IMG/VR virus record: IMGVR_UViG_3300031918_000015
Span: 1-64,000 of that record
Source: an uncultured virus (IMG/VR IMGVR_UViG_3300031918_000015)
Lineage: Duplodnaviria > Heunggongvirae > Uroviricota > Caudoviricetes
Direction: 5' to 3' (one strand)
Length of the DNA stretch: 64,000 bases
Numbering within the stretch: position 1 is the stretch's first letter; each line of letters starts with the position of its first letter. A program made the translations under genes and the position numbers. Shown here piece by piece: positions 24,347-38,456 of the stretch. The notes beneath the pieces were generated by a model. The model was not told the origin of the DNA, ran no database searches, and worked only from the letters and a program-made list of their open reading frames with translations.

Positions 24347-24438
24347 TTTATATCTTCCTTTTCGTTTTTATTTATCAAAATCGGATTTACTTCAATGTCA
24401 ATCCGATTTATAATTTACATATATGTATTATTAATTTA

Positions 24439-25302
24439 TTAGAATTTCAAGTCTGAATATTTAGCCTTACAAGTATCTTCTATAATTGGTTTTCTAGTTT
24501 TAAAATCTAAATTAGCCATCAATAAACTACTATTAACTAATTGTAGTTCTGATAAAGCTTTATTAACTGAACCTTGTAAGTGATTTCTTGTAGTAATATC
24601 TTTATATCCAATATAGTCTCTTAATTCCATAGCCGATTTTCCAGTTAAAGCTATATTCAATAAGTTAGCTTCTCGTTTTGTTAATGAGTCATCTGAATTA
24701 TCAAATCCATTTAATTCACACCATTTATTAATATACACTTTCATGTCAGTATACCCTTTAGCCTCGGGTTCTCTAATTTCTAGCCATTCAATTTTATCTT
24801 TTATTGCTTGTTCTATTTTAATAAAATATTTTCTACATAACAAACCCATTTCATTGTTTTCAATCATACATAATTGTTTTGACATTTCTAAATTTAAAGA
24901 ATATTCTTCTGTTATTCCATAGTATGAACGTTGTTGAGAATTAAGTTCTAATATTTGTTCCTGTGATAACAGTGCGTTCCCAAATTTTTGAACGTAGGCT
25001 ATTACTGGATTTGATGGTATTTTATAATGTTTAATATAATCTTCATTTTCAACAAAGGTATATTTTTCTATTCTTCCTTTTATCCAATCACTAAATTTAG
25101 TTGATTTTATTTTATTTCCGTTTTTTCCTGTTTTTACATTCTCAACTAGATTACTATGTAATTTTCTACCATCAATACAAAATCCATCATCAGTATTTGT
25201 TAATACTGCTGGAAATTTTCTTTGTGCATCCATAACTAACTTAGAGTTTTTTTCTGTCATACCTAATTGTTCTTTTAATTCTTGCTTTGTAAATTTCTTC
25301 AT
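24439..25302 (-). CDS. AntA/AntB antirepressor family protein
   Basis: IDGRKLH...FSDWIKGRIEKYTFVENEDY...EYSLNLEMSKQLCMIE...RKYFIKIE. Confidence 0.85.
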   Translation of the reverse strand: MKKFTKQELKEQLGMTEKNSKLVMDAQRKFPAVLTNTDDGFCIDGRKLHSNLVENVKTGKNGNKIKSTKFSDWIKGRIEKYTFVENEDYIKHYKIPSNPVIAYVQKFGNALLSQEQILELNSQQRSYYGITEEYSLNLEMSKQLCMIENNEMGLLCRKYFIKIEQAIKDKIEWLEIREPEAKGYTDMKVYINKWCELNGFDNSDDSLTKREANLLNIALTGKSAMELRDYIGYKDITTRNHLQGSVNKALSELQLVNSSLLMANLDFKTRKPIIEDTCKAKYSDLKF

Positions 25303-25627
25303 TTTATTACCTCACTTTTTAATTTATTATTAAATGAGGTATTTTGTTGATAAATGTGAAAATATCCTAAAATCACATCTTAGCTGTATTGCTAATAATA
25401 AATATTCAATTAAATGAGGAAGTCTAATTGTAAAGCACTAACTATCCTAAGAGTGCTACTGGAAATAATTCTAGTTATTTATATTTAGTTTTTACCAAGT
25501 ATCATCACTTGGAACATAGTGTAATAAAACACCAATAAAATCACACATTTTTATAAAAACTGTAGGAGGTTGTTATATTTATATATGTGATTTTATTGCT
25601 ACTTTATTTTATTAATTTATTTTTAAA

Positions 25628-26412
25628 ATCCCTATCCGTATGGTTATGTCCACTAATTCTATAGGGTAATACTCTTGTACTTCGAGTATCATATAATCGG
25701 AAGCTTTTCCAGTTAACGAATAGCTATCGCATTTCCTTAATCCTGTCTTAGAAATTTTCTGATAGTAGGTTTTTAATATAGACTATTACATATATCTACG
25801 GAAGAATTACCTATGTCAACTCCCTAATCACTGGCGTAAAGCCTATCTTCAACATCTAATTAATCTAGAGTGACTAATTAGTCTCGATGGTACAACTAAA
25901 ACGTCTCCATCTATTCAATCCAATCAACCATTTATTAAACGCATATTGACCAGCGTTTTGTATCATATGTTTTCTTTCAGATTATCAATCCTATTCAAGT
26001 TTTGGTAAACATAAAACCATTATAAAGCAAAGTTAAATACCTAATCTTGAAACGACATTTACTTTATTGCTTAATAGATACACTTGTTATCTATTCCGTT
26101 TTTGGCATGCTACGATAACATCTAAATAAAAATAGATTTAACGTCCCTATCGGACTAATGGTAAGCGTTCACTATTATTTTTTATACAGGGGTGTGACCG
26201 AATTAATCATTATAATTTCCTCAGCTAGTGAGCCTGTTTTCTAACCTTGCCTTGAATATTATTTTAACGTCCCCTCAAGGAGTACCGAGTAACTGAAAAT
26301 TACTCTGGGGAATGAGTGTTAGTCCTCATATATTATTTAAACCCATAGATAAATATAAAATATTACAAGGTTATAGATATTTCTCACGACTTCTCTGTAA
26401 CATCTATAAGGT
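25628..26412 (-). ncRNA. Large ornate structured ncRNA, ROOL/GOLLD class candidate
   Basis: ORF-free, GC-elevated tract with many stems: 25630-35/25661-66, 25668-90, 26073-95, 26250-80, 26287-305, 26371-82/26399-409. Sits in the late operon. Boundaries approximate; family assignment from memory of motif character, not a search. Confidence 0.7.
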
Positions 26413-26474
26413 TCTCGTTAATATCAATTAGTTGTTTTAATTTATTTTATAGTCAAATCTTTCTCAAGTATCTG

Positions 26475-26600
26475 CTATTCGACTTCATCAAATTCTTTAC
26501 ATTTATCAATTGTAATTTCTACACCACTTCTTTCAAGTTTTAATATGTACTCTTTATACATTATACAAACTCTTTCATGTTGACAGTTATCACATTTCAT
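26475..26600 (-). CDS. 41-aa Cys-rich peptide
   Basis: Not in track. MKCDNCQHERVCIMYKEYILKLERSGVEITIDKCKEFDEVE*, starting 1 nt after the upstream stop. Confidence 0.55.
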   Translation of the reverse strand: MKCDNCQHERVCIMYKEYILKLERSGVEITIDKCKEFDEVE

Positions 26601-26601
26601 A

Positions 26602-26937
26602 TTATTTGCCTTCTTCCATGCAGAATGTATTCTCACACTCATTGCATGTTATATCAAGTCCTTCAAACTTAGATTTAATTTCTTTTCCACAACCACATAC
26701 ATATTTAAATATAGGTTGTTTTTCTTTTTCTTTAGGCTCTTTAAATTTCTTAATATTAATTGAGATTGTATCTTCTTCCTCTAATGTAGCTAATAATTCT
26801 TTTACCTCAGCAGTTACATTAATTTCTGTTTCTACTAATTCATTTTCCTCATTCTCAACTTTTATAGTTCCCTTTAATTCACCATCTTTATATTCTACTT
26901 TAATGCCTTTATAATCTACTTTTAATGCTTTAGCCAT
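26602..26937 (-). CDS. Small protein with C-terminal Zn ribbon
   Basis: YVCGCG...CNEC; AAGGAG RBS. Confidence 0.65.
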   Translation of the reverse strand: MAKALKVDYKGIKVEYKDGELKGTIKVENEENELVETEINVTAEVKELLATLEEEDTISINIKKFKEPKEKEKQPIFKYVCGCGKEIKSKFEGLDITCNECENTFCMEEGK

Positions 26938-26969
26938 TATTTCTATCTCCTTTTATTTTATTAATTTAT

Positions 26970-28451
26970 TTACAAAGTTATTTGCATATCCTTATATGAT
27001 GAAATAACTTTTGTTGTCCTGTTCATTTTGCTCAATTCTATTTCAGATAATTTCTTTAATTCTTCTTTTGCGTCACTACTTCCATGTTGCAATACTACTT
27101 TTTGACAATCACACTGCTTAATATAGTTTACAATATCTTTTTGTGATGCGTGGCTACTGAATGAATAGTATCTTTTCACAATACATCTCTTTTTTAATGT
27201 TCTACCATCAACAATAACTGTATCTGTACTATTATCTAATAATTGACCACCTATTGTATTAGGAGAACAATATCCACAAAATAATATTCCATTATGAGAA
27301 TCTTGTAACATTTGATTAACAAATAGATTACTAAAACCTCCTGATATCATCCCACTTGAACTTAGTACTAGGTAACTTTTTGGTTTAGAATTAACAAAAG
27401 CTTCACAACTCTTATTATCATTTATAAATTTAAAAGCTTTCCAAGTCATAACTTCATCCCAATAAGCCAAATCTTCATTATCTAAAACCTCATACATTTT
27501 GTCATTTATTTTTTTACCTAGATTAGTTGCTATTATAATTGGTTTAGACATATCCCATCTATCTTTAAACGTATCATATAGCCAACTCATCATATTACTA
27601 AGTCTAGATAAGGCAAAACATGGTATCATACACGAATGATTATAATTTACAAATCCTAGTATATCTTTTTCTAATTGTTTTCTTTCTTCTATACAAGTTC
27701 TCTTGTTGAAATTTCTATCTCCTAATCCATATGTACTTTCTATAAATAGAATATTTGAATTAGATACTGGAATTGTTGGTTCTGTAAAATATGTATATGA
27801 GTAATTATCTGTATTTCCTAAATCACTTGTAATACAAATCTTTTTTACAATATTTGTTCCAAATTTCTTTATAAAAATTTCTAATTGTGTCGAACCAATA
27901 ATATGTGAGTTATTTGTAAATCTAAAAGACAAATAGTCATCTAAATGATATATATTATCCAATTCATAAACGTCCATCATACTCATTACATTATCTAAAT
28001 CTTTTTCTTCAAATAATTCTTTTACTTTCCCTTTGATTTTCTTTTTAAATTTATCTTTATTTTCTCTTAAATACTCGCAATTTTTCACATGAATTTTAAT
28101 GCAATCTTTTAACATTGGTTTAGATAATATTGAATTAGTCTTTGTAGTTATTATCCTACCTTTAAATCCCATTGAAGATAATGCTGGAAACAATCCAATA
28201 TGATCACAATGTAAATGAAGCATAAAACAATAATCTGACTCTTTAATAGGAATATTATTTAACATTTCCTTATTTAGTATATATTCGTCAGCCATATCGT
28301 TATTTTGTATCATTCCTAATTCGACCAAAACACATTTTCTACCTATATCTGATAAATATGAAATGCTTAAATTACTGCCTACTACTTCTTCGGCTTGATT
28401 TCCATTTAGACTTATTACAATTTCATTTTCTTTATTCTTTTTTCCTCCCAT
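26970..28451 (-). CDS. Metallo-beta-lactamase/beta-CASP ribonuclease (CPSF73/RNase J-like)
   Basis: HLHCDH, SHIIGS, TSDLG, IESTYG, SSSGM, CGYC and SSHAS motifs. Confidence 0.85.
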   Translation of the reverse strand: MGGKKNKENEIVISLNGNQAEEVVGSNLSISYLSDIGRKCVLVELGMIQNNDMADEYILNKEMLNNIPIKESDYCFMLHLHCDHIGLFPALSSMGFKGRIITTKTNSILSKPMLKDCIKIHVKNCEYLRENKDKFKKKIKGKVKELFEEKDLDNVMSMMDVYELDNIYHLDDYLSFRFTNNSHIIGSTQLEIFIKKFGTNIVKKICITSDLGNTDNYSYTYFTEPTIPVSNSNILFIESTYGLGDRNFNKRTCIEERKQLEKDILGFVNYNHSCMIPCFALSRLSNMMSWLYDTFKDRWDMSKPIIIATNLGKKINDKMYEVLDNEDLAYWDEVMTWKAFKFINDNKSCEAFVNSKPKSYLVLSSSGMISGGFSNLFVNQMLQDSHNGILFCGYCSPNTIGGQLLDNSTDTVIVDGRTLKKRCIVKRYYSFSSHASQKDIVNYIKQCDCQKVVLQHGSSDAKEELKKLSEIELSKMNRTTKVISSYKDMQITL

Positions 28452-28598
28452 AATTCTCCCTCAAACCCTCCACCGATATATACGGTATATATTTTTGTTT
28501 ATATTAACTAACAACCTATACATTAATATAAGTTCTATGATTAATACAAAATAGAAGGACTGAATTATTTCTAATCTAGTCCTTCTCAAATGTCTTTA

Positions 28599-37205: not shown

Positions 37206-38456
37206 TTATTTTTGCATTTCTTTAAGTAAATTTGATGCAACACTATTATTATCTTCAACATCAACTACTATTTCTTCTTCTGATTCATTATCATCCCAAC
37301 CTAGCAACCTATGTTCTACAGATCGCATATGTTTTTCATCTTTTGCTTCAGGTCTACCTTCAAAATTATTGAATCCTTTTTTATTTAGTTGTTTTGATAT
37401 AGAATTACTGTTTGAAAATTCTCTTGTCATTGCATCCAATAAGAATCCAATTGGAGATATTACATCATTATTCTTTATATAATTATCTAATACTTTTATT
37501 TTTTCAATCAAATAAGCTACCGGATCAGTATCTCTATATTTTTCTTTAGTTATTTCCATAGCTGTATCAAATAAATTTTGAGTATCTTTGGAAGATAATT
37601 TTACATTATATTTTAATAAAGCATCTGAAACTTCTTTAAATGCTGATGGAATTTTATTTTTAAAATCATCGTCTGCTAAAAATTCAATATTTGTTTTTTT
37701 AGTAATATTAAATTGCAATAAAGTAATTATTCTACCACTTCTAATTGGTTTAAATACAACATCAATATCACTAATTTTATTAATTATATTTAAATTGGGT
37801 TTTATAATATTTCTATTTAATTCAGCAAAATTATCATACTTATTCTGTATAGCAAGCATAAATTTAAATTCATCAACAGTCATTTTATATATTCCAAGAT
37901 AAGCTTTGCTTTTTAATATTTCATAAATTCTATATGCATATTTACTTCTAATATCTTGGGATAAATCAAAAAATAAAGCTACATATTTTCCTTTAAATAT
38001 CAACAAATCTAATAAAATATCTATATTGAAAGTTATTGATATTACACCATTTTTCCCATCATAGTCACATGAAGAAACCCATCTTCTTTTACTTAATTTA
38101 GAATGTTCATCATAATAATAAAAACCTGCTTCGTATAAATCATCTACTTCTTTACTTAAATACTCATAAATACCCTTTCCAGCAATATCATATTCATCTT
38201 TGAATTCTGAAACAGATATTTCTATTAATCTAAATTGCATAGCACCCAATACTTTTGTGAGATTATTTGGTGTCATTCTTTTTTCAATATAAATTGGTTG
38301 CATCTTTTTACAAGCTAAAGCAATTATTCTTTGTTGCGTAAAAGATAATTCATAAGAAGTTGCTATAAGGCTTGGAGATTTATATGTGTATTTAGTATTA
38401 TTAAGTGGTTTAAGTCCATCTATATCATCTAAAATAGAAAGTTGTTGATATCCCAT
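37206..38456 (-). CDS. Plasmid replication initiator, Rep_3/RepB family
   Basis: LIATSYELSFTQQRII, RWVSS, SKYAYRIYEIL, YDNFAELNRNIIKP, FNNFEGR. Confidence 0.9.
   Translation of the reverse strand: MGYQQLSILDDIDGLKPLNNTKYTYKSPSLIATSYELSFTQQRIIALACKKMQPIYIEKRMTPNNLTKVLGAMQFRLIEISVSEFKDEYDIAGKGIYEYLSKEVDDLYEAGFYYYDEHSKLSKRRWVSSCDYDGKNGVISITFNIDILLDLLIFKGKYVALFFDLSQDIRSKYAYRIYEILKSKAYLGIYKMTVDEFKFMLAIQNKYDNFAELNRNIIKPNLNIINKISDIDVVFKPIRSGRIITLLQFNITKKTNIEFLADDDFKNKIPSAFKEVSDALLKYNVKLSSKDTQNLFDTAMEITKEKYRDTDPVAYLIEKIKVLDNYIKNNDVISPIGFLLDAMTREFSNSNSISKQLNKKGFNNFEGRPEAKDEKHMRSVEHRLLGWDDNESEEEIVVDVEDNNSVASNLLKEMQK

Follow-up and report, generated by a model that had tools for sequence, protein, structure and literature searches.

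A drum RNA within a probable hypervariable island of short RNA modules in a large peat phage

In a stretch of 64,000 nucleotides from an uncultured virus (hereafter the window) we found a tract that is probably a hypervariable island of at least six short structured RNA modules that adjoin one another on the minus strand, among them a drum RNA. This good confidence refers to the identity and the architecture of the tract and excludes the functional guess. The drum RNA (RF02958) was recognized at 25962-26072 on the minus strand with 55.9 bits against a gathering score of 43, covered model positions 1-112 of 112, and was the only Rfam match above gathering score in the whole window. All helices P1-P4 of the window drum are paired and the invariant stretches GAAUAG and GAAAGAAAA are present, while for the family as a whole an alignment of 27 drums showed compensatory changes on both sides in 20 of the 22 predicted pairs. 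A preliminary description of this DNA had proposed a structured non-coding RNA on the minus strand of a phage, which is borne out by this match, and had assigned it to the ROOL or GOLLD class, which is not: neither family was among the cmscan rows obtained for 24800-27200 on both strands with 4227 Rfam families at E<=10, and no ROOL reached the gathering score anywhere in the window. Besides the drum, this permissive search returned only sub-threshold chance rows, namely ceN102 (a snoRNA look-alike) and mir-3149, the latter corresponding to an AT-rich inverted repeat at 25525-25606 (24.9 bits vs 100). No tRNA was found in the window by ARAGORN, nor any row of the Rfam tRNA clan at E<=10 in 24800-27200, nor a skipping-rope RNA in the window at Rfam gathering scores, and a blastn search of the gap against 50,697 phage records gave no match.

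The window belongs to an IMG/VR virus record of 75.9 kb, which is rated 31% complete. An identical locus is carried by a metagenome contig of 248.6 kb, the DNA of the locus was found in peat metagenomes, and the tract is assigned to a phage of roughly 250 kb from peat. Three other contigs contain the locus with 100% identity. Genes on the minus strand follow the order HU-like, beta-CASP/RMMBL ribonuclease, two small ORFs, the ORF-free gap, AntA-like, exonuclease-like and ClpP-like, with an HNH gene and the large terminase further downstream. The earlier placement of the tract inside the late operon is therefore loose, as the gap separates genes of nucleic acid metabolism (HU-like, beta-CASP RNase) from the AntA-like gene, and the terminase follows the exonuclease-like and ClpP-like genes only at greater distance. 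Sequence matches of the beta-CASP RNase in the PDB were to INTS11, CPSF73 and Cas14; matches to Cas14/aCPSF1 in NCBIfam were far under the cut-off. Elsewhere in the window (37206-38456) there is a Rep3-type plasmid replication initiator with WH1 and WH2 domains in a phage that also has terminase and head genes, which would fit a phage-plasmid lifestyle.

Most of what had been described for the tract from its letters alone was confirmed. Among ORFs of at least 30 aa it holds only one of 30 aa (25874-25966, minus strand) and one of 39 aa (26312-26431, plus strand), and the true ORF-free gap (25303-26474) is wider than the 785 nt originally flagged (25628-26412). GC content of these 785 nt is 0.325, while the window averages 0.256 (sd 0.023); of 633 segments of 785 nt, taken in steps of 100 nt, not one reached 0.325, and the tract is the most GC-rich. 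All four inverted repeats that had been named are present as written, and the 64 kb contain exactly two copies of the 10-mer GGGACGTTAA, each on the minus strand (26138-26147 and 26264-26273). At up to one mismatch, two or more matches of this 10-mer were also obtained in 24 of 100 shuffles, and the repeated GGGACGUUAA was on these grounds rejected as a significant motif. Folding of the whole 785 nt was no better than that of shuffled sequences (z -0.75 for the minus strand and -0.61 for the plus strand, with 20 shuffles per strand), and the stems as a set are not beyond chance. Two of the four stems do belong to RNA units, although to separate short ones: the stem at 26073-26095 is the 5' hairpin of the drum (P0), and another is the terminal hairpin of the last module. 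As a side observation, three of the seven minus-strand CGTTAA sites of the window lie within about 550 nt (25718-26269, modules A, D and E). Module C holds GACGUUUUAG, which is related to CGTTAA, and the kink-turn strand of the drum consensus reads GGCGUUGAAG.

Table 1. Positions in the window of the RNA modules and of the adjoining genes, in the order of the minus strand.
Feature	Position	Strand	Description
CPSF73/INTS11-type beta-CASP ribonuclease gene	26970..28451	-	Pfam Beta-Casp and RMMBL
Module A0, 5' part of the island	26342..26474	-	Hairpin UUAUAGAU/AUCUAUAA, 26402-26409 with 26371-26378; fold z -1.50
Module A, three hairpins	26234..26341	-	AUGAG/CUCAU; GAGUAA/UUACUC; CCUUGA/UCAAGG with GGGGACGUUAAAA in the loop
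Spacer and module D	26096..26233	-	Hairpin CGAUA...UAUCG (26113-26152) with the second GGGACGUUAA and an inner hairpin AUCUA/UAGAU
Drum with 5' hairpin P0	25962..26095	-	Drum 25962-26072 (RF02958); P0 26073-26095, AAUAGAUA/UAUCUAUU, outside the Rfam model
Module C	25854..25961	-	AAACGC/GCGUUU right after the drum, no U-run; GAUGG/CCAUC with loop AGACGUUUUAGUUGUA; 10-bp CUAAUUAGUC/GAUUAAUUAG
Module X	25753..25853	-	Occupies the position of 298 nt in L029 that include tRNA-Tyr; fold z +0.31
Module E, four hairpins	25628..25752	-	Last hairpin CCCUAU...AUAGGG (25630-25666), then AUUUU; fold z -2.24
AT-rich leader of the AntA-like gene	25303..25627	-	GC 0.225; outside the RNA island proper; 71% identity over 360 nt with L012
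AntA-type antirepressor-like gene, downstream of the island	24439..25302	-	Pfam AntA 4.1e-13; PHROG anti-repressor

The modules (Table 1) differ in how far they can be followed into other genomes. Module A0 contains promoter-like sites at 26467-26439 and 26359-26332, such sites not being in excess over shuffles (16 vs 14.5), and had no homologue among roughly 120 loci compared. Module A shared 92.7% identity over 110 nt with locus L009 (7048-7157) and was absent from L008, L029 and L012; a UCCCC...GGGGA pseudoknot could form with its last hairpin, and the available comparison held no compensatory or informative change. For module D only the final ~35 nt (26096-26129) were common to L029. Two explanations for module D were tried and dropped. 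A second, decayed drum was undetectable, as an nhmmer profile of 27 drums found a single copy in 24800-27200 at E<=1000, and a paralogous relation between modules A and D was unsupported, 99 of 1000 shuffles reaching the local alignment score. The DNA of drum and P0 was 94.7% identical to L029 (169 nt) and 85% identical to L008. Part of module C (25854-25915) was common to L008 (85%) and L009 (92%) and not to L029; its fold z was -1.85, and in our own reading of the alignment the changes appear to preserve pairing through G-U or G-C. An exact pattern search for module C yielded four stretches, all of them in already known contigs. Module X shared only 25826-25856 with L029, and there was no sign of a tRNA remnant here, in that it did not align to the tRNA-Tyr of relatives and ARAGORN called no tRNA. 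Module E was 87% identical over 161 nt to L029 (1872-2031), with one compensatory and two one-sided changes in its 33 predicted pairs, and small comparisons of this kind seem to support local hairpins. Its last hairpin together with AUUUU is likely the 3' end of the island transcript, although the terminator scan does not call it because its loop measures 25 nt. The leader of the AntA-like gene contains a long imperfect AT-rich inverted repeat (25523-25608) that is partly conserved in L009 and L012, was the source of the mir-3149 row, and may be an operator or a terminator. Fold z-scores of the modules ranged from -2.24 to +0.74, and since +0.74 is the value of the genuine drum, the z-score is uninformative in such AT-rich RNA. 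Modules A, C, E and the others have no counterpart in Rfam and have been seen in this phage group only; among the roughly 120 loci, no piece of the gap other than the drum had a homologue beyond it.

The hypervariable nature of the island was apparent when the DNA of nine viral and four metagenome loci encoding the RNase at 82-100% identity was compared with the window. The four loci from the metagenome scan with the RNase were all variants otherwise known. Loci of the L008 type share with the window the drum with its hairpin (25967-26095) and module C (25854-25915) and lack module A, those of the L009 type share modules A and C and lack the drum, and L029, which belongs to a further phage, shares the drum and module E and lacks modules A and C. 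L012 has in common only the AT-rich leader (25304-25627). Nothing of the gap is shared by L006, L007, L010 and L011, which encode a 479-aa ORF there instead. This ORF, which fills the slot in the 96%-identical relatives (L006:7018-8457), showed weak I-HmuI/NUMOD-like and PvuRts1I-like matches and may be a mobile gene of the homing endonuclease type. Other RNAs also occupy the slot: L008 carries a skipping-rope RNA, a drum and a tRNA-Tyr, L029 a drum and a tRNA-Tyr, and L009 a tRNA with anticodon CTA (L009:7615-7689) that reads UAG and was labelled tRNA-Pyl by ARAGORN, a hint of possible suppression or recoding of amber codons in some phages of the group. The tRNA-Tyr(GTA) of L008 (8244-8329) and of L029 (1778-1864), both with encoded CCA and similar flanks, lie ~230-340 nt downstream of the drum; the window has none. 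In L029 the tRNA-Tyr lies between drum and module E, where the window has 73 unrelated nt. Drums were present in three of the five related virus records searched. L029 and L125 have a gene order like that of the window, yet for the RNase and ClpP-like proteins identity to the window is only 27%, while DNA identity is 94.7% for drum with P0 and 87% for module E. This discrepancy points to a swapping of RNA modules as cassettes between distant phages.

Pieces of the tract occur in RNA libraries. Contigs from two metatranscriptome runs (X20 and X22) together cover 25964-26463; these contigs give no strand, ends or level, and DNA is possible in such libraries. Run X20 contributed two contigs, one of 514 nt that matches 25964-26095 and differs in its flanks, and one of 183 nt with full identity to 26281-26463, and for run X22 at least eight contigs were listed over 25966-26131 and 26166-26328. 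The flanking genes (24400-25632 and 26592-28500) had no cover in X20 and X22, an absence that is not countable as evidence, and runs X21 and X23, which are probably DNA, were left uncounted.

These data also bear on a rival reading in which the tract would be one functional RNA of 0.5-0.8 kb, of a new ornate class, with the drum as merely one of its domains. The GC content raised over the entire 785 nt would agree with a single long RNA, as would the lack of a promoter-like excess and of internal terminators, and the library contigs tile 25964-26463 with single contigs spanning module borders (25997-26131 and 26166-26292). However, modules occur independently of each other in relatives, the drum of bacteria is self-contained with its own promoter and terminator (see below), the whole-tract fold has a z of only -0.75, ROOL and GOLLD remained unmatched at E<=10, and no long-range pair was supported in any comparison made. 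A mosaic whose pieces occur separately is incompatible with one conserved long-range fold. The claim of a single 0.7-0.8 kb ornate RNA in the preliminary description is contradicted by this mosaic distribution and fold score, and we consider a long functional RNA very unlikely.

It is scarcely credible, on the other hand, that the tract is non-functional debris, i.e. a recombination hot spot filled with decaying fragments of mobile genes in which the drum is a relic. Such an origin would be in line with the hypervariable slot, the L006-type ORF with its weak I-HmuI/NUMOD-like matches, and modules D and X that have neither homologues nor excess stability. The drum match nevertheless exceeds the threshold and spans the full model (1-112 of 112), conservation among relatives amounts to 85-93% for modules A, C and E, the locus is unchanged in the three other contigs, GC is the highest in the window, and RNA-library contigs cover the tract.

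In order to see the drum in its usual surroundings, we searched with a pattern derived from its conserved 3' part, which gave 20 stretches from viruses and 81 from genomes, 80 of them being taken further. A profile search at E<1e-6 then resulted in 29 non-redundant drum loci. The tallies below refer to 30 loci, the window among them. Of 17 viral loci submitted to Rfam, 5 contained a confirmed drum. The pattern also produced chance matches in the viral contigs L017, L030, L031 and L035 (about 1438-1600), where type II hammerhead ribozymes were recognized with 60-65 bits. The bacterial drum unit consists, in this order, of a promoter (of the TTGACA/TATAAT type as it seems from our own reading of the flanks), the 5' hairpin P0, the drum and a terminator. 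P0, a hairpin of 6-9 bp directly 5' of the Rfam drum model, was found in 28 of the 30 loci, also in the window, and its stem takes at least seven different sequences. Because P0 lies just 5' of the model and the bacterial promoter just before P0, the natural drum RNA appears to be ~25 nt longer than the model. A terminator hairpin with U-run was detected by script at 25 of the 30 drums and is missing in the window, L008, L029, L036 and L080; these hairpins are self-contained and start 0-4 nt after the drum.

Directly behind the terminator and on the same strand, most bacterial loci carry a frame for a protein with the PBECR4 domain (PF18813). Pfam detected this domain at 12 of the 22 loci scanned, in 11 cases above the curated cut-off and in one as a fragment below it, the scan having taken 56 of the 116 neighbouring ORFs, those nearest the drum on each side. 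With an HMM of our own run on six-frame translations, the frame was found at 18 of the 30 loci (17 of the 25 genome loci and L034). Ten of these 18 positives had served to build the HMM, and the other eight include three that are fragments or gapped and one that is cut by the contig end. No PBECR4 frame followed the remaining 12 drums. Other neighbours of drums were an integrase, AntA, AbiH, a type I restriction subunit and HicB. An AntA-type gene adjoins the drum both in the window (24439-25302) and in a Christensenella genome (L117:2689-3030), two cases that may be a coincidence. No tRNA lay within 2.5 kb of the drum at any of the 25 bacterial genome loci, and tRNAs were therefore rejected as general drum neighbours. 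A PBECR4 gene without a detectable drum exists as well, as it is present in the Lactococcus lactis control and none of 14 controls had a drum.

PBECR domains are described as predicted BECR-fold RNases of phages and mobile elements (PMC5512222). A structural model of one PBECR4 protein reached a pLDDT of 86.3; Foldseek gave nothing in the PDB at E<=0.001, and a wide VIA search reached a best Z of 4.4, its weak rows comprising the toxins BrnT, RelE, colicin D and CdiA-CT besides many unrelated proteins. Neither PADLOC nor NCBIfam provided a name for the PBECR4 proteins. Weinberg et al. noted a terminator at the 3' end of the drum and its "compelling association" with a protein close by, unnamed in the main text (PMC5737381). 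We found no paper in the literature linking the drum to PBECR4 or to toxin-antitoxin systems, and the supplement of PMC5737381 may already name the protein.

Drums in phage islands deviate from this pattern. The four of them (window, L008, L029 and L036) have neither a PBECR4 frame nor a canonical terminator, and no terminator-like site was present in 25000-27000 of the window, whose drum also seems, from the flanks as we read them, to have no promoter of its own directly upstream. PF18813 was absent from the virus record of the window and from four related records, all five being rated incomplete; the 248-kb contig was outside this search. According to PMC8191799, part of the drum consensus is a kink-turn, which folds in magnesium, is situated between P1 and P2 and is composed of a 3-nt bulge followed by G.A and A.G pairs. 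Among 27 drums we found the GA/GA form in 18, a GA/UA variant (G.A and A.U) in five, and no kink-turn in four (window, L029, L008 and L076), so that it is missing in three of the four phage-island drums. In the window AA stands opposite UU, with three A-U pairs after the 3-nt bulge without the kink-turn signature, and the window drum may therefore not bind the same partner.

How might such an island work? We lean towards co-transcription: the modules, without promoters or terminators of their own, would be transcribed together from the promoter-like sites at 26467-26332 to the hairpin at 25630-25666 and then be processed into stable small RNAs. A candidate for this step is the CPSF73-like beta-CASP RNase encoded next to the island, which may do the cutting, a suggestion whose basis is one syntenic lineage. 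In all relatives examined (L006, L008, L009, L012 and L029/L125, in the last at 27% identity) the RNase gene is located upstream of the island, and as all of them have the same synteny with the RNase beside the island, this linkage counts as a single observation.

Concerning the drum itself, the bacterial arrangement of an RNA with its own promoter and terminator just before an RNase gene resembles the way type III toxin-antitoxin pairs are laid out. The phage drum, which is not accompanied by a PBECR4 gene, might then work in trans, as a decoy antitoxin directed at the PBECR4 system of the host, a tentative proposal by analogy that we hold to be rather unlikely. The analogy is with phage phiTE, which is reported to escape ToxIN by means of an RNA mimic of the antitoxin, pseudo-ToxI (PMC3475682); an orphan drum in a phage could act in a like manner against PBECR4 of the host. 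The occurrence of tRNA-Tyr beside orphan drums in two phage lineages enters a wider form of the decoy proposal (see below). Colicin E5, which has the BECR fold, cleaves tRNA-Tyr. Against a decoy, the order of promoter, terminator and gene also fits a cis-acting leader, the phage copy has no kink-turn, and PBECR4 genes exist without a detectable drum. According to Weinberg et al., such motifs are seldom found in 5' UTRs, and their partner protein may lie on either side and either strand (PMC5737381).

The drum could accordingly be a cis-acting leader, that is an attenuator or autoregulatory site of the PBECR4 gene, with phage copies being inert passengers or regulating something else in cis. 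Promoter, folded RNA, terminator, ribosome-binding site and gene, as seen at 18 of the 30 loci, form the classic layout of an attenuator. We nonetheless judge a leader decidedly improbable. At 12 of the 30 drums the PBECR4 frame is missing behind the RNA, the terminator hairpins are self-contained and follow 0-4 nt after the drum, and phage copies are 85-95% identical between phages whose proteins are 27% identical. Weinberg et al. also argue against riboswitch function (PMC5737381). As for the decoy proposal, its full combination, in which the orphan drums without kink-turn of large phages are decoys against the PBECR4 system, are exchanged as cassettes, and are matured with the rest of the island by the CPSF73-like RNase and not by terminators, is unlikely to hold in all its parts.

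With respect to significance, the tract adds one more example of an RNA family already on record, in a type of phage RNA island that is likewise known, and the excitement raised by a possible ROOL or GOLLD RNA was unfounded. Unusual are the drum lacking a kink-turn and the three conserved modules (A, C and E) outside Rfam families. The usual bacterial context of promoter, P0, drum, terminator and PBECR4 provides a testable handle on the drum, which was described in 2017. If the toxin-antitoxin reading were true, it would mean a new RNA-protein toxin system and a second instance in nature of a phage RNA that mimics an antitoxin.

Compared with known systems, the tract resembles ROOL and GOLLD in being non-coding, phage-borne, GC-elevated and, in some relatives, close to tRNAs; unlike them it has no covariance-model match and no single conserved fold of 500-800 nt, and its modules are independently distributed. 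With the drum RNA of Weinberg et al. 2017 (RF02958; PMC5737381) the window copy shares the full-length match above gathering score, helices P1-P4 and P0, but it differs from bacterial drums in lacking the kink-turn signature, a terminator, its own promoter and PBECR4, and in lying inside an array of RNA modules. Short structured RNAs in a row, exchange of cassettes and a variable slot are features of known phage RNA islands too; the relative L008 has skipping-rope, drum and tRNA-Tyr in this slot, whereas the window itself has neither tRNA nor skipping-rope. A 2026 preprint on tRNA mimics treats skipping-rope and mentions neither the drum nor phages. The type III layout, i.e. an RNA gene, a terminator and an endoribonuclease-type gene within one transcription unit, is present on one strand at bacterial drum loci and not in the window, and the likeness to ToxIN concerns the layout alone. 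ToxI repeats are arranged in tandem and measure 36 nt. The drum, in contrast, is a single complex fold of 135 nt with no tandem repeats, and PBECR4 is BECR-fold and not ToxN-like. A parallel to the window on the phage side might be pseudo-ToxI as reported for phiTE (PMC3475682), where a phage likewise carries an orphan copy of the RNA.
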